64,000 nt of DNA from Psammoneis japonica (Eukaryota): the NCBI GenBank assembly GCA_008632985.1, contig QPGO01000186.1, forward strand, positions 1 through 64,000, written 5' to 3'. Under the pieces are notes generated by a model. That model was not told the DNA's origin. It saw only the letters and a program-made list of their open reading frames with translations, and searched no databases. The translations under genes and the position numbers were made by a program. Shown here piece after piece: positions 44,564 to 63,931 of the stretch. Position 1 is the stretch's first letter; every line of letters starts with the position of its first letter.

Positions 44564-46237
44564 ATGACATCACGGGCAGATCATTGTGCAACCGAAGATT
44601 CCGCTCTTCTGAACAGAGAGCGACAGATGTCTGAGTCGAGAATAAATTGGAAACGAATGAGAATGTTTGGAATTGTGTTGATTTCTTTTACGCTCGGCTC
44701 TCTTGTGATGTCAAGTCGTCGGGTATCCTCGCGAGAAAGAAACATGGATGAATTTGTGTCTTTCCCAAGCGACTTTGTTTGGGGTTCGGCAACATCAAGT
44801 TACCAGATTGAAGGCGCCACAAAAGAAAATGGCCGAGGAGTGTCGATTTGGGACGTTTATTGTTCTACAGATGATAATCACACAAACTGCAATGGTGATA
44901 CAGCTGATGTAGCGTGTGATCATTACCACCGCATGGAATCGGATGTGAAGCTCATGGCAGAGCTTGGGCTCAAGGCTTACAGATTCTCAATAGCATGGCC
45001 ACGTATTATTCCTCAAGGGTCCGGCGAAGTGAATGCTGCGGGGGTTGCTTTTTACAATAGGCTCATTGACAAATTGCTTGAACACAACATTGAACCGTGG
45101 GTGACCTTGTATCATTGGGATTTGCCGCAAGCACTTCAAGACAACTATGAGGGATGGCTCGGCAGAGACATTGTCAAAGACTTTGGAGACTACGCAAGAA
45201 TATGTTTTAATGCATTTGGAGACCGTGTAAAGCATTGGATGACCATTAATGAGAGCTGGACGGTTGCAATCCACGGCTTTGAAGAGGGCTCGAATGCACC
45301 AGGGTACTTTGGTCAGCCATACATTGTTGCACATCATTTGATCTTGGCTCATGCAAGAGCGGTGCGCATATATAAAACAGAGTTTGCGGCACAGAATGGT
45401 GACATTGGGATTGCAAACTGCGGAGACTTTCGATTTCCTCTGGACCACTCTAGTGAGGCGGACCTGGAGGCCGAAGAACGAGCCATGGAATTTCAACTTT
45501 CTTGGTTTGCGGACCCAATATGGAAAGGTGATTATCCAGAGTCTATGCGAACTATGCTTGGATCGCGCCTTCCTCATTTCACTCAGGAAGAACGATCCGA
45601 GGTGTTGGGATCGAGTGACTGGTTTGGTTTGAATCACTACTCGTCGTTATTAGCTAGCAAGCCCGAGGGCAAAGCACCGAGTAGCGGTGGATACTGGGAG
45701 GACATGCATGTGAGTTTTAGTTCAGATCCCAGCTGGCGAAAGAATTGCATGGTACGTCACAAGTGTTCTGAGGACATGCAACATCCCTTTCTCGCCTTGA
45801 ACTTGAAAAGATTTCAGCGTCTTGCTCCCTCGCACGCCCCGTACTTACTGTAGGGCTGGAGCATCGTTCCGGACGGCGCTCGAAGGCTGCTAGAGTGGAT
45901 TGACGAGCGTTATGATCACCCCAAAATTTACATGACAGAGAATGGATCATGTGATGACGAGCCAGATCTGGATTCTGCTCTACATGACTACGGGCGACGC
46001 GACTACTTTGAAGGGTACCTCCGAGCTTGCGCGGAAGCAATAGAGGCTGGAGTCGATCTTCGGGGTTACTTTGCATGGTCGTTGATGGACAATTTTGAGT
46101 GGCAATATGGATATAAGCGTCGGTTTGGTATCTTTAGAGTGGATTTTGTAACCCAGAAACGCACACCCAAGCTCTCGGCGGCGTGGTATAAGGACACCAT
46201 AGCATCAAACGGGCGAAACATTGATAAGGCCAGATAA
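44564..46237 (+). CDS. Glycoside hydrolase family 1 (beta-glucosidase-like) with N-terminal TM; intron 45752-45853
   Basis: FPSDFVWGSATSSYQIEGA, YRFSIAWPRI, TLYHWDLP, acid/base TINES, nucleophile YMTENG and GYFAWSLMDNFEW. Confidence 0.95.
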
Positions 46238-47720
46238 TTGTTGTCGATGCTTTCCACGATGTCATGTGGTATTTCTTAATCTCTCCAAAAAACTAAAGTT
46301 TGGCACTCCAGAGTAATACCAATATAGAAGGATGGCAGTATGAATGAGCCCAATGATGGCTGTGACAAAATCATACCAAAAAGTGTCAGCTGGAATCCAT
46401 CCAAAAAACTCTACGAGAAAGTACATCGAATTGCTTTCAAGGACGAGCAACATGAGCAACCAAAAGCCCTGATTCATAATTCGTTGCAGTTTGATTGGAT
46501 ATTCAACACTCGGGAGACTTGAATCAATAAACAATCTGAATCCGATCTCCACAAATGCAATAGACAACATTAACTCTGTGCTTGCTGTATTCGGAGCAAA
46601 GTTGCGCGGCAAGCAGGTTATTGCCACAATGTTCAGCATTCCCATTAAAGGCATGATGTTTGTATCGTAGTGCCCGCTTTCTCGTAGGACGGCCAACGAA
46701 ACCTGCAGGCAATGGTCCGTTTTCCTCGTACCGGCCTGTCCAAATGAATGGGGTACGAACTCAAACTTTAGCGAATTTCTTTTGTGCTTGAATCCAGGAA
46801 TATGGATGTACTCCACTAAGTGCCCATAAGGCACAGGGGTGGATCCTTGACTGTCACTCTCTTCCGCAAGCTTCAGTTTCCATTTGTTTCTATCCCATTT
46901 TCTTCCTGTGTGTCTATTAGCCAATATCGCAAGCCTGATGACAAGTTCGTGGCGATCATGAGGAAAGTCGTCAACACGTAAATTCTTCTGCAGCAACACA
47001 GCATTGTACATGCAAGTCCAACGCATGAGTCGTGTATCTTCTCGGACAAGACAGACTTCAGGATTGCCGATTGTATCAAACGAAACCACGTTTAGGATCG
47101 AAAGCGGCGGAACGTCGACTTGTTCAATAAAACTAGTATCCATTTGCTGTCGACAAGCATGCTCTCGACCTTGCATAGTCCAAACATACGGTTGGAATTT
47201 TGATCGCTTTGCTGTATTATCATTTTGTTCATCCCCCATGTCATTCCAGAACAAAGTTACTCGAAATTTCATGGGAACATGACCAAGACGAACGTCCACT
47301 TCTCCAACATGCCACACCACGACCTGGAAACGTATTGAAGCATCGCTGTCTTCCTCAAAGTGTGTGGGAAGAATACGCCTCCTCGCCATTCCATAGTTGA
47401 CTTTATTTTTCAGCAGAAAACTCTCATCATTCGCCTCCTCTTCATCGTCCTCGAGGAATAAACCCGAATTATCGTCGTTTTCGTTCGCGTCATCACTAAC
47501 CCAGAAGAAAGACGTGCTTCGATTCATCTCAACAACTAGACGCACTGAAAGAGGAAACCTGCGCAAGGTTGACGAGCGGAGTCAACAAATGAGCGTCAGC
47601 AAGAAAGAAAGAATGGATGTTGATGGCTGATGATGGCCGATCGATAATGGGGTCGCGAGCTGGGATTGATTGCGAATTCGATGGTCCTGGTCGAGTCTTG
47701 TAGTTGGTGGCGTTTTTTAC
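45726..47720 (+). repeat. Segmental duplication, copy A (GH1 3' end + pLGIC-like gene + upstream DNA)
   Basis: Aligns by eye with 60237-62210 from ATCCCAGCTGG to GGTGGCGTTTTTTAC. Confidence 0.95.
46262..47566 (-). CDS. Pentameric ligand-gated ion channel-like protein (Cys-less Pro-loop type), copy A
   Basis: MKFRVTLFWND, VPPLSILN, DDFPHDRHEL (FPxD loop) and four C-terminal hydrophobic segments. True start uncertain (ATG 47527 or an upstream exon). Confidence 0.75.
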   Translation of the reverse strand: MRRFPLSVRLVVEMNRSTSFFWVSDDANENDDNSGLFLEDDEEEANDESFLLKNKVNYGMARRRILPTHFEEDSDASIRFQVVVWHVGEVDVRLGHVPMKFRVTLFWNDMGDEQNDNTAKRSKFQPYVWTMQGREHACRQQMDTSFIEQVDVPPLSILNVVSFDTIGNPEVCLVREDTRLMRWTCMYNAVLLQKNLRVDDFPHDRHELVIRLAILANRHTGRKWDRNKWKLKLAEESDSQGSTPVPYGHLVEYIHIPGFKHKRNSLKFEFVPHSFGQAGTRKTDHCLQVSLAVLRESGHYDTNIMPLMGMLNIVAITCLPRNFAPNTASTELMLSIAFVEIGFRLFIDSSLPSVEYPIKLQRIMNQGFWLLMLLVLESNSMYFLVEFFGWIPADTFWYDFVTAIIGLIHTAILLYWYYSGVPNFSFLERLRNTT

Positions 47721-47745
47721 AGCCAGACACGCCCCCCCCCCCCCA

Positions 47746-48250
47746 GGTTTTGACGTGAAATTTTGAGTGTCTTTTTTTGTCGCAAACTCTTGTCATGGCC
47801 ATTGCTCCAGCACTTCATCATTCAGCTGCAACGTTGATTTGTCTTGGAGCTTCAGTTTGCATGTCAGAAGGCCCTTGGGACATTGTGCCATTGATGCAAA
47901 AGAGTGGAGCCCCTCAGCAAAAAATGCCCTTGCACATTGAAAGCACTGAGGATGGATCTGTCAGCGCACTTGTCACAAAATCTTCTTCCTGGGCTGGCCA
48001 GCCATCCTCCAGGCAATGTTGTCCCAAAGAAGCCTTTGTTGGCCCCATCCAATGACCCCTGGTTGTGTTTCTGATGATTTGCCTGGCACAGCAAGCTTGA
48101 TCACATTGGCAAGCATCTCTGCAGCTGGCGGGTTCATTCAACTTGTCTGTGACATCTCCAAGGCCAGATCTGCTGCCACTCCCATTCCTTGCTCTACTCC
48201 AAGCTTTGCTCCCCCATCTCATGACAACCAACATGGGTGTGGGTGGCCGT
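47746..48250 (+). repeat. Diverged ~500-bp direct repeat, copy 1
   Basis: Shares CTTCATCATTCAGCTGCAAC, GGACATTGTGCCATTGA, CCAGGCAATGTTGTCCCAAAG and GGTTCATTCAACTTGTCTGTGA with 52447-52955. Confidence 0.9.
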
Positions 48251-50481
48251 GAACAATGATTTCTTGTCAAAGGTCAGAGATTTGGCGGCGATGATGAGCC
48301 GTTGCTTTTGGCAGCAATGGATGCTGGGCTCAACGAAGATTGTTGATGGAATCAGAATTGTTGGTCACTGCCTGGTGCTGCTTTCACTGCTGATCATGTG
48401 ATTGTTGCTGCTGCTGGAGATGTTGTTGCAATGCTGATGCTGATGGCACTGCTGCCGTCGTTGCCTCTGAGCGATGGCTGCAGCAAAGGAGGCAACATGG
48501 TTGCACTCAAGACAAAATTGATTGTGGTGTCTAACCTCCCATTGCAGTGTGGCATGACACAACTGCTGCCACATCATGTGATGATCATGATGACACTGGT
48601 CTTTGGTGGATTTGAATGACCGCTGCCATCATGTCTGGTGGTGTGTCCACTGTCCTTGTCATCTCGGACCTCCAATCAGATCTAAAACTTGCAAGCCAAC
48701 ACATCGTTGTTGTTCCCATTGAATGTCATTTTGGTTGTGCTGTTTTGTTGGTTGAGCTGATGATGCATGTGCAGTGCATCAACCAACCTCTGCCAACAAA
48801 ACAACAGTCCGATGGAAATGAAGCATCTCAAAATCACCGCATCTGGCTAAAAATGCAACAACGGTCACCTGACAGACACAGCAGACAGCAGCAACAGCAT
48901 TCAGCATGCTGGCACAGTGCAGTGCTGGCACCCATGGCAACATCAACAACCCACAATGCACATCAGAGATTGCAACTTGCAGCCAACCAGACACCACTGA
49001 CTGAACAACAAAACCAAGAACCCTTGTCACAATGGATCTGGTTGCCTTGCAGGCAAGACTTCGTGCCTTGATGGAAATGACTTTGACTCAGGATGAGCAC
49101 AAGATCCTGGCTGCAGCTCTGCCAACTGGCCCCATTTTGCTGATGTTGAAGCACAAACAGTTGACTGTTTGGATTGGGGACTTTGACTGGTCAGCTGCCA
49201 CGGTGGCCTTCCTGGCAAACAAAGCAATCACAAAGTGGACTTCTCCATCTGATGCTGTCTTCAGCTTTGTGCCAAAAAGGAGTGCAGCTGCACTGTTTCA
49301 GATGCCTGTCTGAAGGCATGTGTGCATCCTTGCATGTTGTTTGTCAAAACAGAGCAGATTGGCTTCTCAGACTTTGCCGAGGAAGATGCCCTCAAGCATG
49401 CCAGAGTCCAAGATGTCAAGATGGATGACAATGAGCACAATTGTTTGAATGCCTTCAGCATCTGCGTCTTGTGGATCACATTCTGTTTTACATGGTGGTC
49501 ACATTCCTTGCCCCAGATGGAAAGTCCGGCATTCCCAGGTCCAATTGCAATCATGACAACAATGAACTGCTCCCCCACGCAGTGAGGGATTTGCAACTCA
49601 AGCATGAACTTTACAACCCCATTGAGAAAGGTTGCAAACATTCTTGCCGCAAGTTCATTTCAGTGGTCCTTGTTCTTGCCGCTTCCTTCACCGGCATCCA
49701 ACTGGCCTGCAAAGAACAAGTTGATGGTTCTGCCAGCAAAGGTCCAGTTGGTTGGATGGCACACTGCCAACACCACCGAATGTGCATCACTGAAGGCAAA
49801 AAAGACAACATCTCCAGTGGTTTGTGTCAGAATCTTGTGCAGTTGGCAGCTGCCAGCAAAGGCCGAGGCACAAAACATGCCCTTTGCATTGATTTGCCTT
49901 TGTTTGGTGTTGCCACGACTTGCACAGAGTGGACATTCCTTGTTTGGACCCTCCAACAAAACCAGATGGAATGAATCAATTGGCTGTTTGTCTGCCAACA
50001 GACATCATCAACTGCAGAAGAAATCTCAAACAAGATGCCAAGGCAGCAGCTGAGCACATTGCGGCGCTTTTGTTGCACCAAAAGAAGCCAGTTCATGAAC
50101 AAACTGGAGGTGATGGCACCAAGAGAAGCAAAGAAAAATGATCTAAGGTGTCCCAACTGTTCCTGAGGACCATCTGGCCAGAGAGCCAATGGATTGTTTT
50201 GCCACTGGACTGTCATCTTGCACCGCACTGAGTGCGTCTCTGCGATTGAAGTGGGGCACGGGGGGGGGGGGGGTGGAACTTGGGGCGGCATCTGCATGCC
50301 CTTCAGGAAGATCAGGATCAGCAAACCCACAAGCAGTGAGGATTTTGACAGCAGACAGTGACAGTCAACAACAACCTGCAGCAATGAACATTGCCATCAG
50401 TTTGAGACCTGAGCAAGGGAGATTTGTTGCAAGTTTGGTGGTCAACCACTGGAATGAACAGCTGGAAATGATTCTTGAGAA

Positions 50482-50852
50482 GGAGTTGTGACAATGGGTG
50501 GTGGAGCAGTGCAGGCCATCTCAAAGCACCAGAAGCTCAACACCTGAAGCAGAACAGAAGCTGAGCTTGTTGGAGCCAACAATGCCACAACCATGATGCT
50601 GTGGACAAAGCTCTTTGTGGAGCACAAAGGGCATTCAATCAACAAAAATGTCCTCAAGAGTGCCATCCCATTGGAGACTGGTGGGTGCAGGAGTGCTGGC
50701 AAAAGGTTGTGAGCATTCAACACCCAGCACATTTCTTTGTTGCCAATCAAATCAAGAAGGGCAGCTTGCAAGTGCAGTGTTGTCCTGCCAATGACATGCC
50801 AAGGGACTTGATGACCAAACTGTTGCAAGGTGAGAAGTTCCAAAAGTTCTGA
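50482..50852 (+). mobile_element. Ty1/copia RNase H fragment (degenerate)
   Basis: GGAVQAISKHQKLNT*SRTEAELVGA...MLWTKLFVEHKGH and HFFVANQIKKGSLQVQCCPANDMPRDLMTKLLQGEKFQKF match the copia RNase H pattern (KLNTRSSTEAELV; YFF...YCPTxDMxAD.xTKPLQG). Confidence 0.88.
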
Positions 50853-52446
50853 TGAGCTGTTGTGGTTTGTCAACTTCAAGCACGACAGGCATGACAAGGC
50901 CTGTTCTTTGTGATGTCAGACAAGAGTTCTGATGCATGTGGGTGAAAGATCCCTGACAAGTTCAATGCTCAGTGCAAACATGAGGTGTGATGAGAGCCTT
51001 GAGACCCGCACACATCATTTGTGTCAAAGAATGATGAAAATGGAAGAAGAAACCACCTTTGTTGATGTTTGAACCATCCGAGTGCTGCGTTGTTTGGACC
51101 AATCAAAGACAGATGGCCCAATTGCTGCTGGAACAGATGAAAGAAACAATGTGATTGGATTGATGCCACATGCAGAAATTGAGAAACCACTGCCGGTGTG
51201 AGTGGAGCTGTGGAGGCAAAAATGCTGTGCCATGAAAGAATTGCATGACAGCGCAGTGAAGGATTGGACATGCTGTGTGCCAAGGCACATGACTGCTGCT
51301 GTGCACCGGTGGTGTTCTCAATGCATGATGAGACAAGAGCATCATGAACAATGCCAAGCTGTGCAGAATGAATGTGTGCAAGACCAGAGAGTGCTGGTGA
51401 ATGTTCAGCTTTGATGATGAGTTGCAGGGCAAGATTTGCAGCTGAAGCTGCAAAGAGAACAACAAGTTTGAGAAGATCACACCAGACCAACATGTTGCCA
51501 GATCCCGGAATGGGAATCTTCAAGAACTTGCAATGGACAAGAGAGATGTTTCTTTTTCTCACCCTGCAGACAAATTGAGGGTCAGCTGTCCTCCCACACA
51601 TGGTGTGGACAACCAAGGGGCACATGGCCCATTTGAAATGCTCAGTTTGAAAGATGATGGGTGTGGCAAGGTCTGCTGTGGACCAGTTCAAGACAAGAAT
51701 GGAGATGTCTTTGCCATGTGCAAGTTGGCGCAATTCATTGATTGTGACATCAACAAAGCAAGGTCCCATGCAATGTGAACCTGTCAGAACATGGATTTCT
51801 TTGTGGTGGATCCTGAAGTGGTCAATGGATCATGGACCAATTGAACAGTTCACACAAAAGGAGCTCAGTGGAATGGAATCACCGTGCCTGTGTTGTTGAG
51901 TTTGTGGAGTGTGCACAAAATGTTGCCCCAACACTTTCAATGACATGTTGGAATTTGCCAACAAAGGGCATCATGCCAGCTGGCGGTGCACCTGAACAGA
52001 AGACAATGGTGACAACCAAGGAGATTTGGCCAGCAAGTTCATTGTGAGGAACAAGCACTCCAACCATTGATTGCAGCAACAAGAGTGTGTCAGAGCATCA
52101 AGACTGGCAGAGAAAATGAGAAGCCTGGAAGCACATCTGTTGAAGAGAAGATGCTTTCTTGGATCCTGATGTGATGGATTTGGTGACACCTGACAAGCAA
52201 ATGTGCATTCATCACCAATCTCACCAACCTTCTTTTTAGCTCACTCTTTGGAGTGAATCATCTGGTTTGCATGAGTTGTGTTGTGATGCCAGTGGGCACT
52301 GTTTTGTCACCTTTGCGTTGCAAGAACAAAGTTGTTGAGAGCTTCCAGGCAAACCACAGTTGCCATGAAAACCAGGACATGTGCAACAAGTGGCACAGGA
52401 AACCTCAGAGGATTCCCTGCATTGACTTGTTGGTTCAACAATTGAT

Positions 52447-52955
52447 GGCTTTGATGTGAAATTCTGCATGTGTTTTTTGTGCTGTAAAACTCACTCTTGT
52501 CATCACCACTGCTCCAGCCCTTCATCATTCAGCTGCAACATTGTTTTGTCCTGGAGCTCAAATTTTCATGTCAGAAGGCACTCTGGACATTGTGCCATTG
52601 ACGCAAAAGAGTGGAGATCCTCAGCAAAATGTCCTTGCATGCTGAAAGCACTGCAAGTGGATCTGTCATTGCCCTTGGTGCAAAATCTTCCTGGGCTGGT
52701 CTGTCATCTTCCAGGCAATGTTGTCCCAAAGCAGCCTCTGTTGGCCCATCCAATGACCCCTGGTGTTTCTGATGAAATGCCTGGCACAACAAACTTGATC
52801 ACATTGGCAGCATCTGCAGTTGGCAGGGTTCATTCAACTTGTCTGTGATGTCTCCCAGGCCAGATCTGCCTGCACTCCCACTCCCTTGCTCTGCTCCAAG
52901 CTTTGTTGCTCCCCCAGTGACAGCCAATGTGTGGGTGATGGGTGTGGGTGGCCAT
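52447..52955 (+). repeat. Diverged ~500-bp direct repeat, copy 2
   Basis: Aligns with 47746-48250. Confidence 0.9.
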
Positions 52956-53899
52956 CAGCTCTCTGTCTTTCTTTGCCCAAGTGCTCCAATCCACTGCAGG
53001 ATCTGTTCCTTGCACCATGGCTGCTTTGGGCATTGCACCCCATTCTGTGGAGGTTGCTGGCTTGAAGCAAGGGGCCACCTGTGTGAAGTGCAGCCAGCAA
53101 GGATGCTGCACATGGACAAGCTTGGCTTGAAGAGCATCAGAAATCTTTGGAACAACTTCAAAACAATCACCAGGAGCAGCTGAGCCATCTGGTGCAACAG
53201 TTTCAGGCATTTTTCTAGCAGCACCTTCCCAACAATGATCAAGAACCCTGCTCCTCTCCTCAGCACAAGTGGCAATCTGTCTGCGTCACCCCTGCTGGTT
53301 TGTCAGTGGAAGTTCCTCCTCCTGGAGATGCTGCTGTGGCCAGCATCACCTGCAATGAATCAAATTTTGTGGGAGGTGGGACAAGTTGTCTTCCTTGCCC
53401 TTTCCAAATGATGTTGCAGGTGATGCATCTGACACAAAGTCTTTCTTTGAGGAGGCGTGGCCCAATCACAAGTGAAGGTCTTCAAAATCTTTGTGTGAAG
53501 CCGCTTGGCAGAGTGGGGCCAAGTGCTGGATGGACATCATTGTGCTCCTGCCAACCAAACCATTGGTTGCTGAAATTTTTCTGGCTGCAACACAATTGGC
53601 AACGGTCACCCAATGGAACCAAAACTTTCTCATTGCACTTGTTTCTTGTGTGCTTTCAATGCAAGTGGGTGCACACATGATTCTTGTGGCAGCGACTTCA
53701 ACATGTGTTGCCAGGTTGCAATCAAGATCCAAGCAGGTGTCATTGGCATTTCTGCTGCTTGCTGCACAACCCCACATTGCACAACCCCTTGCAGGTCAGT
53801 GGTCCACAACTCACTGCATCATGGCTGTGTCAGTTTGTCTGCATCCTTTGTTCCCTTCACTGTGCTGCACAAACCAGGTGGTGCAGTTGTTGTTTCCTG

Positions 53900-56800
53900 C
53901 ATCTCTGTGTCTTTGCACTGTCAAACCTGGCAAGCAGGCTCATTGGGCACATTTTCAATCCCAACATTTGATGAAAAACAAGAGGTTGTCAAGTCATGTT
54001 TGTGTTGCATCATCAAGTCTGCATGAGCTGGTCTTCATCCTCTGCAGGCAAAACTGCTGCCTGTCCCCAACAGGTGCCACTGCTTTGTCAACAAGGCAGA
54101 GTTCTGCCTGATCTTCATCAAGCTTTTTGTGCCAACTTTGAGTCCTTTCTCAATGACCTAAATTGGAGGGTGATGCTCTTTGCAACTCCAACATCTGACT
54201 TTGTCATGACACTGACTCACTTGCCAGATTGGCAATTTGATTCAAGTCATCTGATGTCATGTTCAGTCACATGCAAGACATGGATTTTTCCACCTGCTTG
54301 TGCACTCTTGGCAACTTGACTGCACTCTCACAACTCCAGGGGCTTTTGACATGGCACAGCACTGTGGTCACAAATTGTTTGTGCACAGGATTTTGTTGGA
54401 CCACTGTGCATGCCATTGGCTTGAGCATGCATTTTCTCTTTGGAAACCCTGCCATTGACCTTCCCCAAGCAGATTTCTGCTCTCTTCATGCTCATTTTTC
54501 CAAGCACATCACTGTGTGTCTAGAGGCAATTGGGCTGATGCTGGACAGTTGTGCTGTGCTGGCATGGAATGCTGTGCTGTTGCACCCCAACACACCAGAT
54601 CTTCTTTTTCTTCTTGCTGAAAGGCCAGATGGAGACATTGCTCAGTTTTGCATTTCTGCTGCCAAGCATTGTTGCAAGTGTCAGGAGCCAGAATGGTCCA
54701 AGAAATTTGCAGATCTCTGCCACACAAAGTGTTCACTTTTTCCTGCCTCTTGTCCATGTTCAAAAATCGACTCAACTTTGTTGAGTCCATTCTGGTGAAT
54801 GGTGTGAGAACTTTCTCAATCATTCCTTCTTCTGCCCACTCATGACAACAACATCAGACTGCCTTTTGCAAAGCTCAAGCCAGGTGCAAAAAGGTTGCTT
54901 GTGACTGTGTCAAGAACAGAGAATGTGAGTGTCACAAAAGAGTTGCCAAGTTTGGCCTCAAGTGCACTCCAGAGTTTGCCAAGCAAGCAAAGATCCTCTG
55001 CACTTTGCAATGTGCAGAGGAAACAAAGCTGCATGTTTGGGAAGATCAAAGCATTTGCAAACAAAGAAGCCTCTGGTGTGCAAAATGTTCAGGTTCCCAA
55101 GAACCCCACCAGGGATGATCCCAAGACATGTGAGAATTGGGCAACAATTGATGCTCCAAAAAATGTTGCTGCTGTGTCACAAAAGAGCAAGAAATTGAGC
55201 ATGTTTTGGACAAGCTCAAGATGCCCCTTCTGTGGCTCCTCCTCAGTTGGTTGATCTTGGAGACATGAGAGCAATGCAGTCATGGCTGGCCCAGTTCTTG
55301 ATGGCAAGTGTGGCACTGATTTGTTTGATGAAGCTGCTGCCCTGCTCATGCTGCAGCACATGTGTTGACATGCTCCAGTGTGAGCATTGAGTTTTCTGAC
55401 TCCTGACAAACTGTGCAAGAGAATTTGAGTCTTGGCCAGAGCTCACTTTCACTTCTTTGAATCAGGTTTGCACCCAGGTGTCGCTGGAAGGTTGTGCACT
55501 CAGACCAGAGTGCCTTCCATTGCTCTGCACAGGATGAGCATGGAAGTCCAATGAAGAAGAGATTTGCAGCATGTGTCTGCTGGCTAACACAGCAAGGTCA
55601 TGTGTTGACCTCTTGAATGCACTTTTTGATGTCAGCAAATCCACTCTCAGTCCCAGCATGTTTTTCCATGCATTCTCTTGTGCTGACATTTCCCTTCTCA
55701 GATGGTGCCACAATGGCTCCTGCCAGCCCCTTTCAGCTGCTTCTTCCATTGGGCAACTTTGTTGCAGCATGTCAAAAGCAACGTTTTGCAGCAGCAATCA
55801 TCTGCATTGATTTCCACAGATTGATGCGTGCTTGTTGTCTTTTCTGGCAAATTTCTGCTTGTGTTGTGCAGCTTCTTCACAGGATTCAGCACAAGTTCTG
55901 TGAGAGTCACAAATCACAACCAACAACCAACTCATCCTGTCTCCAAGCTTCTCTCATCTGCACATGTCAGCTCTCAACAAAACTCTGCTTCCTGTTGTCA
56001 AATCAGGACGCGTTCCAGGTCTGGGTGGGACCTCGCACTGCTGAACTGTGACATCGACAGTTTTTTGAATCGCGTCGTATGTCGCGCACGTAGATTTCTA
56101 CGTGCACGACATGCGGTGAGCTTTTTGCTTCTGTTGTTGCACTCAGTGGTGAGCTGAAATGCATTTTGTCAATGTCCTTTCAACTGATCCAATCATCAGA
56201 AGATCTGTTTTTGCACTCTGCTTTCTTTGTTGTGGAATGACCATTTTTTTGTTTTGTTGTGGACATTTTTCAAGTCATCATGAATGATGCAATGAACTCC
56301 ACTGCATTGTGTTGCTGTTCCTGCTGGGCGTGTCACCTTGAGGAACCAATGCACTGGAAGTGTGGGCCAGCCAACAACACCAGCCCAGCTGGCAACAAGC
56401 AAAACAGCACTGTGAAACAGATCTGTTTCTTTGAGCCCCTTGTGCACAACAGTGCGGCACTGTTCAAGCTCACACCTGGGAAGCATGGTCCAAGGAGAGG
56501 GCATGGCTCCTGACTTGGGCAAATCCAGAGAGATGCCTGGAGTGCACCCATGCATTGTCTGCCCCCCAATGATGGCAGTGCAGCATCTCATGAGGACATC
56601 ACACACATGGAGATGCATGATGGCTTGATTTGCACAATCAACATGATGCAAATGGCTGTGATTTTGTCTGACACAATGCAAAAACCAAACAAACAGAAAT
56701 TCAATGTGATTCCCTGTTTGCATGACCCTGCTTCTGCAGAGCAAATTAGGCTCACAATTTTCACAGCAGCACTTCTGTGACACATCTGCATTTTTGCAGC

Positions 56801-59800
56801 CTGTTGGGCACATGGGACAGATTGGACCTTGGCCACACACAGCAAGAATTGTTGCGAGAGCTTTGTCCAACTTTTGCAAGTGTGAAGTGTGGTTGGCTTC
56901 AGCTCTGCACATGGAGCTCTGCCAATTGTGTGGCCTGTGACCCCCTGGCATGTGTGGTTGTTGCACTTTTTGATGCTCCAAGACTCCATCATTTTTGGAA
57001 ATTCTTGCACTGGAAATCTCCAGATTGTCCAGAGGGGCACTTTTTGTTGCCAGCAACAATGACTGCACTTTGTGCTGCAATGGGAAAGTGCAGGCAGCAA
57101 TGGCAGCAATCCTTTCTGAGTGTTTGGGCAAAAGTGTGGTTTCTGCGGTGGCAAATGTCCCCCATTTTCTTCTGGGCCTCTCCAAATGGCCCTGCTCCCA
57201 TTGTTTTGATTTTCCAATTGTTTGTGGGACAGGCCAAGGCAGTGTCTGGCAACTCTCTGTTTTGTTGAAACAATTTGCGCAGTGCACCATTTAAAATTTT
57301 TGATTCCAAGCCATGCAGAGCATTCTTTGAATCAATCTCCTGACGGATCCCATCAAGTGCAAATTTGTGTCCAAGCACATGTGGATGACACATCAAAGCA
57401 GATCAATGACTTCCCAAGCATCTCCTCAACCTCTTTCTGTGGAACGTGCTTCTCTTCTTTGGCATCACAACCAACTGTGGTGTGATCAGCTCAATGCATG
57501 TGGGCATGAGTTGCAGCAGCTGAAAAATTCCTTTTATGACACTGAGTGGGATCTCTTGGAGTGGGGGGGGGGGGGGACCAAATTTGCACCCACATGCAAT
57601 GAAGACCTGCACACTGAAATCCACTCAGCAGATCAATCAACTTCCAAATGCAGCAAACAGCTGTGTCTGTGTGCTCCCCACAAAACATTGGGGCATCTGT
57701 TTGCACTGATTGGGACTCAGAAGAAGCAATGATGCATGGAGTTGGGCTCCTTTTGTTTGTTGTTTCCTGCCAAATTGTGCCAAATTGTGACAACATTGTT
57801 GTGCCTGTCATTTGCCATCAATGGCTCATGTTCTGGCATGCCCTCATTTCTCTTGCAAAGCAGAGCCATGCACAACAGGTTCAAAACAAGGCATGCAGGC
57901 CATGTTTGCAAATGTGGGTGCAACCAAAACACTGAGCAAATCATTGTGTGTGAACCACATTTTCCTTGGAGGAGCTAGAGTTTGGTCACTTGATGTGGAA
58001 CAAGGGGCAACACAAGTGCAGTGGTTCATTTGTCATGCCTGTGGAGTGCAACAGGAGCTTCTCTCCAGTGGTTGTTTGCATGAGTCAGCATGACACATCG
58101 CAGTTGCTTGGCATCAGCTGCAACCAGGCACTGATGTGCAAGCTTTCTCCATGATGTCAGCTCTCCTCTCTCTCAATGTGAGCAATCATGGCTTGCATCT
58201 CTTTGTGCTCATTTTGATGGAGTCTTGCCTCTGGCCTTCAGAGAGTCAGCAATCTGGTTGGCACTTGGCAGACATGATGTGTTAGAGTTGGAGCAGTTTT
58301 CTTGTCTTTGGAAATTTGGTGGATCAGCTGTTGCTGATTGCATCTCCCAGTGTTCATGGTGTTGGACATTGCTCCCTTCAATGGATTGGATCTTGATGAG
58401 TCTGAGGTTTGTGGCAACCTTGCATTTCTCAGCAGCACCAGCATGCTCAACAATGTCTGACAAGAAAAGACATCTCTGTGAGCCTGGAAGCCCTGGATCT
58501 GCTTGTGCAACTTGCTGCATTTGCCTGAGTCCACACAGTTGAAAGCCCCTTTGGGAAACTGGTTGTGCCTCCATTGAAGATGTGCAGACAAGTGGCAGGA
58601 TCCTGTGTTCCCAGCAAGAAAGCACATTTGCATGTGTGATCTCTGTCTGGCTTTGACATGTTTCTCATGATGCAGAAAGCTTGGGAACTTCAGCAGGAGA
58701 TGTCTTCTCTGTCTTCTCTCAACAATGGGCACTGGGAGCTTGAATCACAGCATCAATTGAAGCTCAGTGCAGAAATGCCTCCATCTCTAACCTGGTTCTT
58801 TTTAGGAGCACTTGCGTGTGACATTGCCTTTCTGGGAATGTCCACTCTTTTCTCAGATCTTGTCTTTCTCATGTTTTGCTGTCAAACTTGGTTGGGCATT
58901 TTGTGTTGAATTGACTTGCTGTGGGTGGTGATTGTCCATGCATTTGGGTGCACCATCACAGTCAATGGCCAGCCATTGTTTTGTTGACTGTGCAGATCCA
59001 GTGTTTGGCCAGTTTCCTTTCTCACATTAAGCCAAGGCACGTGAAGTTTTGTTGCTGTTACATTTTCTTGTGTTTTGGCCAGCCAAGTGCTGCAATGTGA
59101 CTGGACATGAAAGATTGGAAAATTGCTGCAACAACAGTGCCCTTGTGAGCATCCTCTTCAACCTTTCAGTCTCACAACCAACCACTGATCCCCCCCCCAC
59201 CATTGACCTGGAGAAAGTTGTCAAGCTTTGCTGCCATGTGTGAATGTGTTGTTGTCAGAGTGGGGTTTGTTTGATGAAATGCACCAGATGTTTGTGGAAT
59301 GTTGCATCTCTTCTAGATCTCTTCTCAGCTGGGGTTGTCCCAGGTGCTTCGTGAGCAAAGGGACACCAGGGTCAACAAGCTGCTGCAGAGTTGCTTCCCT
59401 CCTTGATGCCAGAGTCAATGTCTGTGCAGATTGCTTGGCAGCTGGCAGGCCAGTTTCAAGGACAGCAGCAATGCTCATGACATGGCTCATGTTCTACCTT
59501 TTCCCATTCGTGAGCCACACCTTTGTCTGTCTGACAGAACAGCTGCTGCCAGGTTGAAGGCAACTGTCCAGTGTGCTGCCACAGCTCTTGCTTTCACAGA
59601 GCACCTTTGCAAAGGAACAAGAGTTAGATGGAAGCTGCAACAGACTTGATGGACTGTAAAGTTCACACAACTCTCATCCACTGGAACTCCAAGTGACATG
59701 CATCTTCCATCATGCTGATTCACAAGCTCTCACCTGCAAACAAAATTGCCTGCCAGCACAACTCTGTTTGCCCCCACAGTGTCCCTTCGAATGTGGAGAG

Positions 59801-60200
59801 TCCAACCAAGTTGGTTTGTTGATCAGGAATTTGTGTTGGGAGCAATGGGAGCACACAATGAAGCAGTTCACTGTCATGATGATGTGGAGTCCCAAAAGTC
59901 AGCTCAATGCCATCAAGTCAAGGCCAAGCTGACAGCAACACACAACAAATGACAAGAACACTTGGCCAAAGATTGCAAAGTGGGGTGCAGAACTGGGTTG
60001 CGATGGTGAAACCTGGACTCAAAGACAGCTTTAAAGAAGAGAAGTGCCTCATGCTCCATGGGACATGCACCATTGTCAGCCATTTCAGTGGGGCATCACC
60101 TGGCAGTGATGCCCATCCTGGCCAACCCATGGTTGCTTCTGCCACACTGAATGCTGCCCTGGAAGTGCACATTGACCAGTGCTGGCCTGGCTGGCAATGG
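53900..60200 (+). mobile_element. Degenerate large non-LTR retrotransposon (LINE): probable APE, RT and possibly RNase H; limits approximate
   Basis: RT motifs CGTGQGS (57223-57243) and AHVDDT (57375-57392, i.e. YVDD), then LWCDQLNACG...LKNSFY and HKTLGH. Weaker endonuclease-like IGLMLD / KIDSTL at ~54530-54780. Assignment to the diatom Ambal-like clade is only a guess. Confidence 0.75.
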
Positions 60201-60236
60201 AGCAACAACACCATAAAATTGATCTGTTTTTTATAT

Positions 60237-60660
60237 ATCCCAGCTGGTGAAAGAATTGCATGGTACGTCACAAGTGTTCTGAAGACAAGCAACATCCCAT
60301 TGTCACCTTGAAATGAAAAGTTTCCAATGACTTGCTTGTTTGCACGCCCCCCTGGGGCTGGAGCATTGTGCCAGACGGTGCTCGAAAGCCACCAGAGTGG
60401 ATTGACGAGCGTAATGATCACCCCAAAATTTACATGACAGAACGGATCATGCGAGGATGAGATTCAGCTCTACATGACTACGGGCGACGCGACTTCTCTG
60501 AAGGGTACCTCCGAGCTTGCGCAGAAGCAACAGAGGCTGGAGCCGACTTTCAAGGTCACTTTGCCTGGTCGTTGATGGACAATTTTTGAGTGGCAACCGG
60601 TTTGGTATCTTTAGAGTGGATTTTGGAACCCAGAAACGCACACATTGATAAGGTCGATGC
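60237..60660 (+). pseudogene. Truncated, frameshifted copy of the GH1 3' end
   Basis: Homologous to 45726-46255 including the intron. The splice acceptor region is lost, TENG and DNFEW are frameshifted and there are several deletions. Confidence 0.92.
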
Positions 60661-60739
60661 TTTCCACAACTTGCACGTGATGTCATTAGTTGTTCTTGTA
60701 CGATGTTACGTTGTTTACTATTTTTTCTTTATCTCCCAA

Positions 60740-62005
60740 CTAAAGCTTCGGCACCCCAGCGTAATACCAATAGAGCATGATGACAGTATGATTGAGTCCA
60801 ATGATGGCGGTGACACAATCATACCAAAAAGTGTCAGCTGGAATCCATCCATAAAACTCAACGAGAAAATACATCGAATTGCTTTCAAGGACGAGCAACA
60901 TGAGCAACCAGAAGCACTGATTCGTAATTCGTTGCAGTTTGATCTGATATCCAACACTTGGAAGACTTGAATCAATAAACAATCTGAATCCGATCTCCAC
61001 AAATGCAATAGACAACATTAACTCTGTGCTTGCTGTACTGGGAGCAAAGTTGCGCGGCAAGCAAGTTATTGCCACAATGTTTAGCATTCCCATTAAAGGC
61101 ATGATGTTTGTATCGTAGTGTCCACTTTCTCGTAGGACAGCCAACGAAACCTGCAGGCAATGGTCCGTTTTCCTCGTACCGGCTTGTCCAAATGAATGTG
61201 GTACGAAGTCAAACTTTAGTGAATTTCTTTTGTGCTTGAATCCAGGAATATGGATGTGTTCCACTAGGTGCCCATAAGGCACAGGGGTAGATCCTTGACT
61301 GTCGCTCTCTTCCGCAAGCTTCAGTTTCCATTTGTTTCTATCCCATTTTCTTCCCGTGTGTCTATTGGCCAATATCGCAAGCCTGATGATAAGTTCATGC
61401 CGATCATGAGGAAAGTCATCCACACGTAAATTCTTCTGTAGCAAGACAGCATTGTACATGCAAGTCCAACGCATGAGTCTTGTATCTTCTCGGACAAGAC
61501 AGACTTCAGGATTGCCGATTGTATCAAACGAAACCACATTTAGGATCGAAAGCGGCGGAACGTCGACTTGTTCAATAAAACTAGTATCCATTTGCTGTCG
61601 ACAAGCATGCTCTCGACCTTGCATAGTCCAAACGTACGGTTGGAATTTTGTTCGTTTTGCTGTGCTATCATTTTGTTCATCCCCCATGTCATTCCAGAAC
61701 AATGTTACTCGAAATTTCATGGGAACATGACCAAGACGAACGTCCACTTCTCCAACATGCCACACCACGACCTGAAAACGTATTGAAGCTTCGCTGTCTT
61801 CCTCAAAGTGTGTGGGAAGGATACGTCTCCTCGTCATTCCATAGTTGACTTTATCTTTCAGCAGAAAACTCTCATCATTCGCCTCCTCTTCGTCGTCCTC
61901 GAGGAATAAACCTGAACTATCGTCGTTTTCATTCGCGTCATCACTAACCCAGAAGAAAGACGTGCTTCGATTCATCTCAACAACTGAATGAGGAAATCTG
62001 TGCAA
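60740..62005 (-). CDS. Pentameric ligand-gated ion channel-like protein, copy B
   Basis: Intact ORF nearly identical to copy A, with a shorter C-terminus (GVPKL* versus GVPNFSFLERLRNTT*). Confidence 0.75.
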   Translation of the reverse strand: MHRFPHSVVEMNRSTSFFWVSDDANENDDSSGLFLEDDEEEANDESFLLKDKVNYGMTRRRILPTHFEEDSEASIRFQVVVWHVGEVDVRLGHVPMKFRVTLFWNDMGDEQNDSTAKRTKFQPYVWTMQGREHACRQQMDTSFIEQVDVPPLSILNVVSFDTIGNPEVCLVREDTRLMRWTCMYNAVLLQKNLRVDDFPHDRHELIIRLAILANRHTGRKWDRNKWKLKLAEESDSQGSTPVPYGHLVEHIHIPGFKHKRNSLKFDFVPHSFGQAGTRKTDHCLQVSLAVLRESGHYDTNIMPLMGMLNIVAITCLPRNFAPSTASTELMLSIAFVEIGFRLFIDSSLPSVGYQIKLQRITNQCFWLLMLLVLESNSMYFLVEFYGWIPADTFWYDCVTAIIGLNHTVIMLYWYYAGVPKL

Positions 62006-62404
62006 GGTTGACGAGCAGAGTCAACAAATGAGCGTCAGTAAGTGGGCATCAAACGCAATAAAGGAAAGAAAGAATGGATGTTGGCTGACCATGGACTGGT
62101 TGATGGCTGATGATCGATGACATCGATGCGGTCGAGGTCGCGAGCTTGTCGCGAGATCGAGAGATGGTCGATGGTCGTGGTCGAGTCTTGCATTTGGTGG
62201 CGTTTTTTACTTCCTCATGACTGAAATCCCACCAAAAAACCCGGAAATCCCACCCTGGCGCGCCGAATATTATTGAGCTTCGAAAACCGGGGGGTTCGGG
62301 CGGGTGCCCGGTTCATTATTCCGGTTCATGCAAACAGTGTCCCTATCCATTACAGTACCTATCCATCATCGCCTGAGTAAGTCTAAGTCTTAAAGACCTG
62401 AAAG

Positions 62405-63931
62405 ATGCAAGATCGGGAGCACGTTGCTCTCATACTCCCTCCGGGACCCCTCGGGATCCAGATCTCACTGGTAAGGACTCCTCCTCCTTCAACCTCGAGC
62501 TACTGCACCGTGACGAGCGTTGGCTCTGCAAGTAAATTTGTCATAGGAGACTTACTTTACTCCATTGATCGTGTGCAAGTTGCTAATTGGAGCCTTCAAG
62601 ATGTATCTCAGCTTCTTTTATCGAGAGCCGAAACCGTCCGCACTGTGGTGGTGATGCGAAAGAAGAAGCCGCATCCTTCCATCGTCGCCCCAGCGATATC
62701 TGAGAGTGAAATGCAAGAACGACATAAAAGAGCCAGAGAGCATGCGCTGACATCCCTTCCCGCATCGGAGAATACTCAGGCAGCTGAATACCCGAAACGA
62801 AAGCGGGGTCGACCGCGTAAGGACGAAACACGAGAGGCTACTCAAGCTCGTAGCATGCCCAAAGGAAAACCTGGAAAGCAAAGAAAAGTTGAAAAGAAAA
62901 AGGCTGCTGCAGAACGCTCAAGTGTTACTGCTCCTCCACCACAACGGACTGCTGCTGCAGCATCTGCTGCAGTCGCTGCTGCAGAACGCTTAAGTGTTGC
63001 TGCCGCCCCACCAAAACGGACTGTAGCTGCAGCATCTGCTTCAGCTACTGCAGTGAAGGTACCTGAGACCGAGGCTCCTCATGACAGCCTTCATCGCCCA
63101 GAAGTTAAGGGTCAAATTGTCAAGTCATATGAACTCAAAGTAAGTGCTGATAAGCTCGAATCGCTGCAGGGAGATTCTCGATTGGAAGGAGACTCTCTTG
63201 CTTTGGAGCGACTTAAGGAGCTCTGCCAAAGCATGCGCCAGGAGAGTGAACAAATTATGAACTCTCGCCCGGACTCTACCTTAAACACCGGAGAGCGCAA
63301 TCTCAAGGGGCTTATCAAGTTCAAAGAAGAACACGGCCATTGCAATGTGCCTTCTTCCTACAAGAACAAGTCACTTGCTGCTTTCGTCATGAAAATGCGG
63401 GAGCGGCACAGGAAACGTTCATCGGTCTCGAGTCAAAGAGGCAAGCAGCGATTAAACGATGACATTGGGTTTCTCAATCGGCTTGGGTTTTGCTGGGGAT
63501 CACCCGGTGCGTCACCGATAGATTGGGACACCCATTACGAAAAACTAAAGGCCTTTGTAGCGGAAAAGGGCCACGCGAGGGTCCCGCAAATCTACGAGCC
63601 TGACAAAAGGCTGGGTAGCTGGGTGCATGCCCAGCGCAAGGATTATGAGAACTTAAAGGAGGGTAAGAAATCTCCACTTACCGAAGAAAAGATTAAGAAA
63701 TTGGAGGATATAGGTTTTCAGTGGAAGCTAAGAATTGCACGGCCCAAAAAGACGGATGAGCGCTACAGGCGGGTTTCGAGAAAGAGCTTGACCAACGGAA
63801 ATACCGATACGGAAGCAGCAACTTCACACAAAGCTGAAAACGACAACAAAGAAGGGGAAAACGCCGAGAAGGAAAACACCGAGAACGAAGTTGGAGAAGG
63901 GCCCTTTGATCCGGGTGAGTTTATTATATAG
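62405..63931 (+). CDS. Helicase-associated (HA) domain protein with PDZ-like N-terminus and AT-hook; may continue past a donor site at ~63914
   Basis: LPPGPLGIQI...IGDLLYSID (PDZ-like), KRKRGRPRK, and two HA repeats FKEEHGHCNVP...LGFCW and WDTHYEKLKAFVAEKGHARVP...LGSWVHAQR...LEDIGFQW. Confidence 0.85.
   Translation: MQDREHVALILPPGPLGIQISLVRTPPPSTSSYCTVTSVGSASKFVIGDLLYSIDRVQVANWSLQDVSQLLLSRAETVRTVVVMRKKKPHPSIVAPAISESEMQERHKRAREHALTSLPASENTQAAEYPKRKRGRPRKDETREATQARSMPKGKPGKQRKVEKKKAAAERSSVTAPPPQRTAAAASAAVAAAERLSVAAAPPKRTVAAASASATAVKVPETEAPHDSLHRPEVKGQIVKSYELKVSADKLESLQGDSRLEGDSLALERLKELCQSMRQESEQIMNSRPDSTLNTGERNLKGLIKFKEEHGHCNVPSSYKNKSLAAFVMKMRERHRKRSSVSSQRGKQRLNDDIGFLNRLGFCWGSPGASPIDWDTHYEKLKAFVAEKGHARVPQIYEPDKRLGSWVHAQRKDYENLKEGKKSPLTEEKIKKLEDIGFQWKLRIARPKKTDERYRRVSRKSLTNGNTDTEAATSHKAENDNKEGENAEKENTENEVGEGPFDPGEFII

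Follow-up and report, generated by a model that had tools for sequence, protein, structure and literature searches.

What leaves long stretches of diatom DNA almost without TpA, with little CpG, and full of TpG and CpA? This question is raised by the first 64,000 nucleotides of a contig of Psammoneis japonica (QPGO01000186.1, assembly GCA_008632985.1); we refer to this whole stretch as the window. The original prediction described TA- and CG-poor, TG/CA-saturated blocks with sharp edges in this DNA, and dinucleotide counts, a 1-kb profile and a 200-bp map bore it out. Three blocks, none of them assigned to a strand, were delimited:

Positions 1 to 3770: converted block 1, which continues past the start of the window; TA 10 against 255 expected, CG 24 against 214.
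Positions 6960 to 8796: converted block 2; TA 5 against 114 expected, with a partial loss of CG, 43 against 113 (counts over 6960-8790).
Positions 47721 to 60236: main converted block, 12.5 kb; observed/expected (o/e) ratios of 0.04 for TA, 0.12 for CG and about 1.9 for TG/CA.

Pooled over the three blocks, 48 TA were observed against 1216 expected and 155 CG against 1046, with an approximately 1.9-fold elevation of TG/CA. For the main block, base composition predicts 847 TA and 718 CG, where 33 and 88 were counted, and TG (1550 against 826 expected) and CA (1382 against 737) were in excess; its (TG+CA)/TA ratio of 2932/33 = 89 might be read as an equilibrium. Every full 1-kb window within the blocks had a TA o/e of 0.00 to 0.09, and this held for 12 consecutive kilobases. 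TG and CA mostly reached an o/e of 1.7 to 2.2 in these windows (1.5 to 1.9 in block 2), the other A-containing dinucleotides were near normal, and the GC content of the blocks was 47 to 49%. In the remainder of the window (8791-47720), the o/e was 0.54 for TA and 1.03 for CG, and the composition of the host genes beside the blocks was unaffected.

The switch in composition occurred within tens of bases in both the 1-kb profile and the 200-bp map. At the left edge of the main block, the last TA lies at 47718 and the next one at 48195; at its right edge, TAs reappear between 60214 and 60264. Block 1 ends at 3771, and block 2 spans ∼6934-6960 to 8796, bordered by DNA with 17 to 22 TA per 200 bp. 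Since the depletions of TA and of CG have their outer borders in common, the two losses may share a targeting step. Pairwise blastn comparison of the three blocks detected no similarity at an E value of ≤1e-10, and the pattern is therefore not due to a single family's intrinsic composition.

The coding content of the blocks is changed accordingly. The 143 stop-to-stop open reading frames (ORFs) of at least 70 amino acids contained 0.1% Tyr, 4.9% His, 6.3% Cys and 6.2% Gln, and the stop trinucleotides on both strands comprised 931 TGA, 43 TAA and 32 TAG. ORFs that are almost Tyr-free, rich in His and Cys and terminated nearly always at TGA had indeed been noted at the outset; these properties are automatic consequences of the absence of TA. 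Because TGA is the only stop remaining, such blocks also yield long spurious ORFs, which is relevant for annotation. The description of the blocks as relics of transposable elements (TEs) was not confirmed. Pfam searches with the 143 block ORFs (E ≤ 0.1) and with 11 ORFs of block 1 (E ≤ 10) returned no significant family, and the sole hint of TE coding ancestry was one match below the threshold:

Positions 2723 to 3049, + strand: Copia-type SH3_retrovirus (integrase SH3-like domain, PF25597), E = 0.043, 14.2 bits (cut-off 27).

No homologues were found for this ORF in a search against longer proteins, for the ORF at 50972-51829 (−) in a protein search, or for the ORF at 56199-57290 (−) among 1.84 billion representatives, and viral contigs searched with two block ORFs held no relatives. 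As no ancestral or intact relative was recovered, no substitution could be polarised directly. Rfam detected no family in the whole window. To look for TA-free blocks in other diatoms, metagenome contigs carrying homologues of the flanking gene were searched, which provided one uninformative 1.9-kb locus. Most of the main block looks low-copy at a likeness of at least 80%; its genome-repeated part, 50256-52591, had a summed contig depth of 200 to 1100, compared with ∼60 elsewhere.

Losses of TA and of CG are separable, as is evident at the end of block 2:

Positions 8500 to 8796, no strand assigned: TA-free sub-segment with near-normal CG; TA 0 against 14.2 expected, CG 17 against 21.6.

TA is gone here but CG is kept, and the two losses are thus decoupled. 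CG loss was also partial at 7200-8195 (22 observed of 56 expected, with 3 of 68 for TA), and at 52000-55500 both were depleted (TA 5 of 238, CG 9 of 199). A single process acting on both dinucleotides, as first envisaged, is not supported by these segments, nor by the survivors, among which TA alone shows a flanking bias. The 42 surviving TAs were distributed as 29 YTAR, 10 YTAY, 3 RTAR and no RTAY, against ∼25% per context expected from mutational input (chi-square, P = 6e-11), whereas the surviving CGs showed no flank bias (32/39/33/38, P = 0.86). The products were asymmetric, too: YTGY and RCAR together numbered 1313 in the blocks and YCAY and RTGR 846, a ratio of 1.55, compared with 1.11 (1881 versus 1697) in normal DNA (Fisher's exact test, P = 1.1e-9). 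Random strand choice predicts a product ratio of 1.06 and a TAY preference one of 1.37 to 1.46. The survivor bias and the matching product asymmetry together point to A>G mutation at 5'-TAY-3' on either strand.

In a forward simulation, all TA and 90% of CG were converted in the normal DNA of the window, with this gene-rich DNA as a proxy for the ancestral state. TG reached 1.87 to 1.88 and CA 1.89, compared with the observed 1.90 and 1.82. Over the other 12 dinucleotides, unconverted DNA had a root mean square deviation of 0.116, which fell to 0.092 when the strand was chosen at random and to 0.065 to 0.070 with the TAY model; under the TAY model GpC rises and ApT falls, matching the observation. 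Survivor contexts, product contexts and simulation are thus consistent with conversion of ordinary DNA. Cytosine deamination alone cannot yield such a composition, and the proposal that T:A>C:G change at TpA, besides CpG decay, best accounts for the composition is supported by the sharp blocks, by the contexts and the simulation, and by direct observation of the same mutation in Bigelowiella natans.

We consider it probable that the blocks result from near-saturated, TpA-targeted T:A>C:G hypermutation combined with a separate CpG decay, both acting on sharply bounded and probably silenced DNA of repeat or foreign origin. The host would thereby impose two mutation pressures on the same DNA. The first would be a TpA-specific T:A>C:G hypermutation of the B. 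natans kind, almost saturated, in which the A of 5'-TAY-3' would preferentially become G on either strand. YTAY would then turn into YTGY and RTAR into RCAR, RTAY would be struck from both strands, and YTAR would be lost most slowly. The likeliest chemistry would be that a deaminase, TadA/ADAT-like or other, acts on adenine in DNA and leaves hypoxanthine. The second pressure, independent of the first, slower and uneven, would be conversion of CpG to TpG/CpA via 5-methylcytosine deamination. Because TG/CA is the sink of both pressures, TA and CG would disappear with little shift of GC away from the genome mean. The blocks would be old, with part of their sequence duplicated after conversion. 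The composition of the blocks, their limits, their recurrence in a second read set, the separability of the two losses and the TAY rule are demonstrated by the data; in which direction the mutations ran, which enzyme acts, whether silencing or methylation is involved and whether the process serves defence are what we infer.

Hypermutation of TpA to TpG/CpA in integrated foreign (viral) DNA has been described in the chlorarachniophyte B. natans (Mettrop et al., bioRxiv 10.64898/2026.01.13.699255, 2026), and the original prediction's statement that no description of such a signature was known could thus not be upheld. According to the available text of this preprint, mutation-accumulation lines show the change directly: of the 231 de novo mutations recorded in two regions of integrated viral DNA, 230 were A>G/T>C, all of them at TpA, at a rate of ∼6e-7 per site per generation, and the viral region has a Rho_TpA of 0.45 (10.64898/2026.01.13.699255). 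It was the only report of TpA hypermutation that we found in the literature, in diatoms or elsewhere, and no diatom report was found. The blocks described here share the depletion of TA with gain of TG/CA, but the evidence in B. natans consists of observed de novo mutations, whereas here it comes from composition. The depletion is also ∼10 times deeper in the diatom blocks (o/e 0.03 to 0.04), and their DNA has no recognisable viral genes, unlike the integrated viral regions targeted in B. natans. They are, furthermore, CpG-depleted and show a preference for a 3' pyrimidine, whereas the preprint, in its available text, mentions neither CpG nor diatoms and gives no flanking preference (10.64898/2026.01.13.699255). 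The diatom case is probably of the same kind as the B. natans hypermutation, unusually saturated and accompanied by a separate CpG decay. Both hosts are algae of the SAR group.

If this is true, TpA-directed hypermutation is not confined to one rhizarian alga but also occurs in diatoms, which are major, genetically tractable primary producers, and it can near completion. TA-free, TG/CA-saturated blocks would then be a simple genome-wide marker of DNA treated as foreign by the host. A naturally occurring enzyme that turns A:T into G:C within double-stranded genomic DNA would also be indicated, an activity for which the literature yielded only amphioxus ADAT2, as cited in the available text of the B. 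natans preprint. TAY would provide a sharper substrate rule for testing candidate enzymes, and the locus would allow the losses of TA and of CpG to be distinguished in a natural setting. A wider reading, which we put forward tentatively and would not yet favour, is that diatoms and chlorarachniophytes might have in common an ancient DNA-editing defence. A TAY-specific deaminase or other base-modifying enzyme would, without depending on cytosine methylation, target silenced DNA of foreign or repeated nature. Such DNA would end up free of TA and of Tyr codons, with TGA as its only stop, and would carry a compositional scar recognisable in any genome.

Several known systems resemble parts of the pattern. 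The 5-methylcytosine-driven CpG decay of methylated TEs in vertebrates and plants likewise changes CG to TG/CA in a block-limited manner, leaving survivors without flank bias, and CpG loss, TpG/CpA gain and flank independence were all found here; this decay accounts for just half of the signature and cannot remove TpA. CG methylation of diatom TEs is reported in the available text of PMC9998398.

TadA, ADAT2-3 and ADAR enzymes produce A>I changes that read as A>G and prefer a 5' U/T, and the natural bacterial TadA site, U-A-C-G, fits TAY. These are known mainly as RNA enzymes. ADAR prefers a 3' G, in contrast to the 3' pyrimidine in the diatom blocks. The passage on ADAR in the available B. 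natans text names only the 5' U (10.64898/2026.01.13.699255). ADAR-type editing copied back into DNA is ruled against by the 3' pyrimidine preference and by the roughly equal enrichment and the interleaving of TG and CA: had one transcript been edited and then reverse-transcribed, the two strands would not be affected equally.

The same targeting and outcome could alternatively arise by thymine chemistry, which we regard as unlikely. For example, a TET/JBP-type dioxygenase would oxidise the T of RTA; the resulting 5-hydroxymethyl- or 5-formyluracil would mispair with G or be mis-repaired, giving T>C. In sequence, T>C on one strand of a TpA and A>G on the other look identical, and the RTA/TAY rule is compatible with either base. 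Base J in kinetoplastid telomeres and 5hmU in dinoflagellates have a preference for TpA, and T>C changes are an effect of 5-formyluracil. We found no support here, however, for the occurrence in diatoms of these modified bases or of enzymes that make them, and the only study of TpA hypermutation favours, as a proposal in its available text, an ADAT2-like deaminase (10.64898/2026.01.13.699255).

It is improbable that the composition was intrinsic or selected, that is, that elements or foreign DNA were poor in TA and CG before arrival or spread, for example by escaping a TA-dependent nuclease along with CG methylation. As this explanation would have it, no TA-containing relative turned up when three block ORFs were used as protein queries, and TA-free sequence was evidently copied in the TA-free state, which it would equally accommodate. 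The copying is seen in an internal direct repeat of the main block:

Positions 47746 to 48257, + strand: copy 1, forming an LTR-like pair with 52447-52952; 81% identity, 90.6% in a purine/pyrimidine alphabet.
Positions 52447 to 52952, + strand: copy 2, forming an LTR-like pair with 47746-48257.

At the pyrimidine-purine steps of this pair, CA/TG were concordant in 90 cases and discordant in 3. This concordance, together with contigs from another public read set (run X1, see below) that are 95 to 100% alike, indicates copying while already TA-free, and some of the block sequence may have arrived already converted. Self-comparison of the window in the purine/pyrimidine alphabet recovered the known duplicates and a 78-bp repeat (56354-56431 / 60159-60232); no converted copy of normal DNA was seen in it, the many matches of 26 to 64 bases being at chance level. 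Against an intrinsic composition, the pattern is common to three mutually dissimilar blocks, coding capacity is gone and Tyr is down to 0.1%, the TG/CA excess equals the yield from converting ordinary TA plus CG content, and the flank asymmetry of products mirrors that of survivors. Moreover, the block edge falls exactly where a host duplication ends; this duplication brackets the main block:

Positions 45726 to 47720, no strand assigned: left copy of a 2-kb direct duplication, ending exactly at the main block edge; normal composition.
Positions 60237 to 62210, no strand assigned: right copy, starting exactly at the main block edge; 85.7% identity to the left copy.

The left copy contains the 3' end of a GH1 gene (+) and a 434-amino-acid ORF (−) whose top database matches are diatom proteins, one of them named as a neurotransmitter-gated ion-channel ligand-binding-domain protein. 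TA and CG are normal in both copies, with 74 CG/CG and 56 TA/TA steps conserved between them. This makes it highly doubtful that a single RIP-like, duplication-triggered defence of dual specificity converted the TpA and CpG of repeats in bursts. The coinciding outer boundaries of the two depletions and the repetition of parts of the main block in the genome would agree with such a defence, and many diatoms encode a fungal-RID-related DNMT4 of unknown function (PMC9998398, available text). The repeat-induced element implied by the term "RIP-like" is nevertheless not supported, since the adjoining duplication is unconverted and TG and CA show no strand clustering (1446 runs, versus 1462 ± 27 in shuffles). 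Nor do the retention of CG at 8500-8796, the context bias of TA but not CG survivors, and the internal repeat copies, which were not independently converted, fit a dual-specificity process. RIP of ascomycete fungi is similar in being a transition hypermutation that strikes only selfish or repeated DNA, stops at fairly sharp borders and destroys coding capacity. It changes C>T mainly at CpA, however, raising TpA and yielding AT-rich DNA, whereas TpA is erased here by T:A>C:G and GC is maintained; the TpA excess typical of RIP, a high TpA/ApT, is not found in the main block (33/753). RIP is also triggered by duplications of hundreds of base pairs at ∼80% identity or more, whereas the 2-kb duplicate beside the block is untouched. 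In the first ∼400 bp of the right copy (60237-60650), 13 CG/TA>TG/CA changes and 2 reverse changes relative to the left copy were seen, compared with 4 and 5 at the left edge. This hints at leakage of conversion across the right border, but only as a hint, because this segment is a truncated gene fragment in which relaxed selection may contribute.

Contigs from run X1 (k-mer depth 50 to 70, ∼60) reproduce the TA/CG-free block at 99 to 99.7% identity, for example over 47732-49446 with 17 differences and over 57645-60278 with 7. They differ from the window by ∼1%, the normal flank included. Of 1523 contigs placed, 233 matched at ≥99% and 398 at 95 to 99% likeness; coverage by runs X2 and X3 was limited to the flanks or to an unconverted island:

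Positions 56007 to 56115 (109 bp), no strand assigned: unconverted island inside the main block, a fragment of a very high-copy repeat; TA 3 against 5.3 expected, CG 13 against 8.2.

The normal composition of the island serves as an internal control, in that TA and CG are callable there, and together with the reproduction in X1 it makes an assembly artefact unlikely. Systematic miscalling of modified bases as TG/CA, to which one might turn because the sequencing platform is not recorded for either the assembly or X1 and because TA and CG are the two self-complementary pyrimidine-purine steps and typical methylation targets, is very improbable, given the same sequence in independent k-mer contigs that differ equally in normal DNA, the fixation of TG or CA per site without strand-dependent mixture, the 13 CG and 3 TA of the island, and the CG kept at 8500-8796.

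Between the window and X1, the 31 listed positions inside the block represent 29 events: 15 CG<>TG/CA, 4 TA<>TG/CA, 2 adjacent double CA<>TG and 8 others. This spectrum is only weakly diagnostic, since any transition at a TG/CA step in TA/CG-free sequence makes CG or TA. In the X1 contigs, summed depth over the bin that covers the island repeat (55512-56095) is 52568, and loose ends lie at positions 56007 and 56104. The island can also form an imperfect hairpin (∼56078-56112) of 8 + 6 paired bases with a one-base bulge, at −26.8 kcal/mol (z = −3.3).

Sliding 1-kb profiles of all 16 dinucleotides, together with exact counts against the base-composition expectation, confirmed that stretches of the window have almost no TA, few CG and a saturation of TG and CA. 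The features concerned are as follows:

1-3770: block 1, TA/CG-depleted and TG/CA-rich
6960-8796: block 2, of the same composition
47721-60236: block 3, of the same composition
47746-48257 and 52447-52952: ~510-bp LTR-like direct repeat inside block 3 (81% identity)
56007-56115: 109-bp island of normal composition inside block 3
45726-47720 and 60237-62210: 2-kb direct duplication (85.7% identity), with block 3 exactly between its copies

Block 3 contained 33 TA (847 expected) and 88 CG (718 expected), and both TG (1550 versus 826) and CA (1382 versus 737) were nearly doubled. Observed/expected counts were 10/255 for TA and 24/214 for CG in block 1, and 5/114 and 43/113 in block 2 (6960-8790); the other 39 kb had ratios of 0.54 and 1.03. 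The abrupt edges noted originally were also confirmed: TA counts per 200 bp were 0 to 2 inside blocks 1 and 2 versus 13 to 22 just outside, and on the left side of block 3 no TA occurs between those at 47718 and 48195. The sequences flanking blocks 1 and 2 (3800-4100 and 6600-6950) are themselves above the window mean of 7.5 TA per 200 bp, at 13 to 22, which makes the compositional step even steeper. A run of 13 C (47733-47745) lies at the left edge of block 3, 12 bases past the end of the duplication. As noted originally, block ORFs were poor in Tyr (0.1%) and rich in His (4.9%) and Cys (6.3%), and TGA made up 931 of the 1006 stop trinucleotides on both strands; the Tyr scarcity and TGA dominance follow automatically from the absence of TA.

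The contexts of 42 surviving TAs, excluding the island and a TATATA edge, were strongly biased: 29 were Y-TA-R, 10 Y-TA-Y, 3 R-TA-R and none R-TA-Y (Y, pyrimidine; R, purine; chi-square P = 6e-11), while fresh mutation from TG/CA would feed each class at ~25%. In contrast, the 142 surviving CGs were evenly spread over contexts (32/39/33/38; P = 0.86). Since TA is self-complementary, this bias means that the A of 5'-TAY-3' is preferentially lost on either strand, roughly nine times faster than the A of TAR. Such a substrate should convert Y-TA-Y to Y-TG-Y and R-TA-R to R-CA-R, and this prediction held. YTGY+RCAR outnumbered YCAY+RTGR by 1313 to 846 in the blocks (ratio 1.55) and by 1881 to 1697 in normal DNA (1.11; Fisher P = 1.1e-9); predicted ratios were 1.06 with random strand choice and 1.37 to 1.46 with TAY preference. 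Forward simulation on the window's own normal DNA, with every TA and 90% of the CG converted over 20 replicates, gave TG at 1.87 to 1.88 and CA at 1.89, against 1.90 and 1.82 observed, so that the TG/CA excess is quantitatively the yield of converted ordinary DNA. For the other 12 dinucleotides, the root mean square deviation was 0.065 to 0.070 under the TAY model, 0.092 under random choice and 0.116 without conversion, and the TAY model also gave the correct direction of an odd GpC excess and ApT deficit. Product contexts and simulation are the strongest arguments here that the blocks were probably once normal in TA and lost it through a specific reaction.

TA depletion was uniform and near-total across the blocks, but CG depletion varied, with observed/expected ratios from 0.05 to 0.8. 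TA and CG counts were 7/213 and 40/197 at 47721-51000, 5/238 and 9/199 at 52000-55500, 3/68 and 22/56 at 7200-8195, and 0/14.2 and 17/21.6 at 8500-8796. TA loss and CG loss are separable and probably represent two processes. The original proposal of one process erasing both dinucleotides finds no support at 8500-8796, where TA was lost without CG, or in the differing survivor contexts.

The signature had been thought undescribed, but a full-text literature search returned a single relevant description, a preprint on TpA hypermutation in Bigelowiella natans (Mettrop et al., bioRxiv 10.64898/2026.01.13.699255, April 2026). According to its accessible text, two integrated viral regions mutate ~1000-fold faster than the remaining genome in mutation-accumulation lines, and 230 of the 231 mutations there were A>G/T>C, every one of them at TpA, appearing in some lines only; transposase and reverse-transcriptase domains are overrepresented among TpA-poor coding sequences. 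The agent proposed by the authors is an ADAT2-like DNA adenine deaminase, and they liken the process to RIP. The core TpA phenomenon is thus already in print, and the diatom evidence is compositional. As far as that text defines it, the diatom blocks fall within the phenomenon's compositional definition, with much deeper depletion (TA observed/expected 0.03 to 0.04 versus a Rho of 0.45). New here are the different lineage and TA loss at saturation, as well as the TAY rule and separable CpG decay; CpG, diatoms and flanking preference go unmentioned in the accessible text. Diatom transposable elements carry CG methylation, and RID-related DNMT4 genes are present in many diatoms, as reported in PMC9998398.

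We favor, as the somewhat more probable account, B. natans-type TpA-directed hypermutation with independent 5mC-driven CpG decay. The former would strip TA from the blocks and the latter would separately remove CpG, with adenine deamination on DNA as the leading candidate chemistry. The bacterial TadA site, U-A-C-G, fits the TAY rule, whereas the 3' G preferred by ADAR does not. Thymine-directed chemistry (5hmU/5fU) would leave an identical sequence outcome, yet we regard it as rather unlikely.

An intrinsically TA/CG-poor composition is unlikely: no blastn similarity could be detected between the three blocks at E ≤ 1e-10, so their composition is not the property of one family. What the blocks are is less clear than the original label of transposable-element relics implied. 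None of 143 block ORFs of at least 70 aa had a significant Pfam match (the best, a Copia-type SH3-like domain at 2723-3049, was subthreshold at E = 0.043), and no relatives were returned when three block ORFs were searched for homologues and two were scanned against viral contigs. Contigs of a public sequencing run, X1, were matched to the window, 1523 of them with at least 80% likeness. Their summed depth showed block 3 to be partly repeated (200 to 1100 at 50256-52591 versus ~60 elsewhere), with much of it low-copy. The remaining 39 kb held ordinary host genes, including metacaspase, RPN7, SPT16 and a GH1 glycosidase, and no intact transposon.

A single RIP-like process of dual specificity, which would explain both losses at once, is very unlikely given their separability and the unconverted duplication adjoining block 3, whose copies still share 74 CG and 56 TA steps, although RIP hits duplications. 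Fungal RIP also raises TpA, the opposite of block 3 (TpA/ApT = 33/753). The order of TG and CA was random (1446 runs versus 1462 ± 27 in shuffles), with no sign of processive single-strand bursts. Moreover, the internal repeat copies had the same TG or CA at 90 YR steps and differed at 3, while under independent conversion the CG sites alone should account for at least a dozen disagreements; this internal duplication is thus later than most conversion. Of the 1523 X1 contigs, 233 + 398 were at least 95% like the window, indicating that TA-free sequence was copied in that state. The main caveat is that some block DNA may have been converted before arrival.

X1 contained 74% of the window's sampled 31-mers, and its contigs, which differed from the window at 17 positions over 47732-49446 and 7 over 57645-60278, also differed in normal flank (8 differences over 768 bases), which marks them as another haplotype or strain rather than an assembly copy. 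A base-calling artefact, named originally as a possible refutation, is hardly credible, since these contigs contain the same TA/CG-free sequence at a consistent k-mer depth of 50 to 70 over flank and block alike, each site carries one fixed TG or CA, and the island and the CG kept at 8500-8796 serve as internal controls.

Among the X1-window differences listed (40 of 405), 31 positions in block 3 formed 29 events: 15 CG<>TG/CA, 4 TA<>TG/CA, 8 other and 2 adjacent double CA<>TG changes. This spectrum is weakly diagnostic because transitions at TG/CA steps in TA/CG-free sequence always yield CG or TA; the double changes, seen at ~0.7% divergence, point to CG or TA intermediates of short lifetime. 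The block 3 ratios (TG+CA)/TA of 89 and (TG+CA)/CG of 33 would, at equilibrium, correspond to loss/gain rate ratios. In the duplication copy at the right border, ~400 bp carried 13 CG/TA>TG/CA changes versus 2 reverse, with no such excess at the left border (4 versus 5). Since this segment is a truncated gene fragment, we treat these changes only as a hint of conversion spreading past the right border.

The island (TA 3 versus 5.3 expected; CG 13 versus 8.2) belongs to a very high-copy repeat (summed contig depth bin 52568 versus ~60). At its end lies an imperfect hairpin (~56078-56112; 8 + 6 paired bases, one-base bulge), and the island folds as a whole at -26.8 kcal/mol (z = -3.3) and has no Rfam match; beyond 56104, other copies run on differently. 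The island is possibly the terminus of a young MITE- or Helitron-like mobile element.

A 434-aa ORF flanking block 3 had its best matches in diatom proteins, at most 54% identical, in keeping with a diatom host. Each duplication copy carries a ~430-aa minus-strand ORF without a Pfam domain, one match being named as a diatom neurotransmitter-gated ion-channel ligand-binding-domain protein; in the right copy, the GH1 glycosidase gene is also represented by a truncated piece of its 3' end. Compared in the purine/pyrimidine alphabet, the ORF-bearing part (46291-47603) shows 97.6% identity, its differences thus being mostly transitions. A 78-bp repeat (56354-56431 and 60159-60232; 91% identity in that alphabet) links an internal site with the right end of block 3, and X1 contigs connect the two (56371>60185 and 60118>56350), which suggests alternative arrangements or a common element terminus. 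Finally, a tandem duplication (62903-63067; ~72-bp period, 84% identity) lies within an ORF with helicase-associated (HA) domains.
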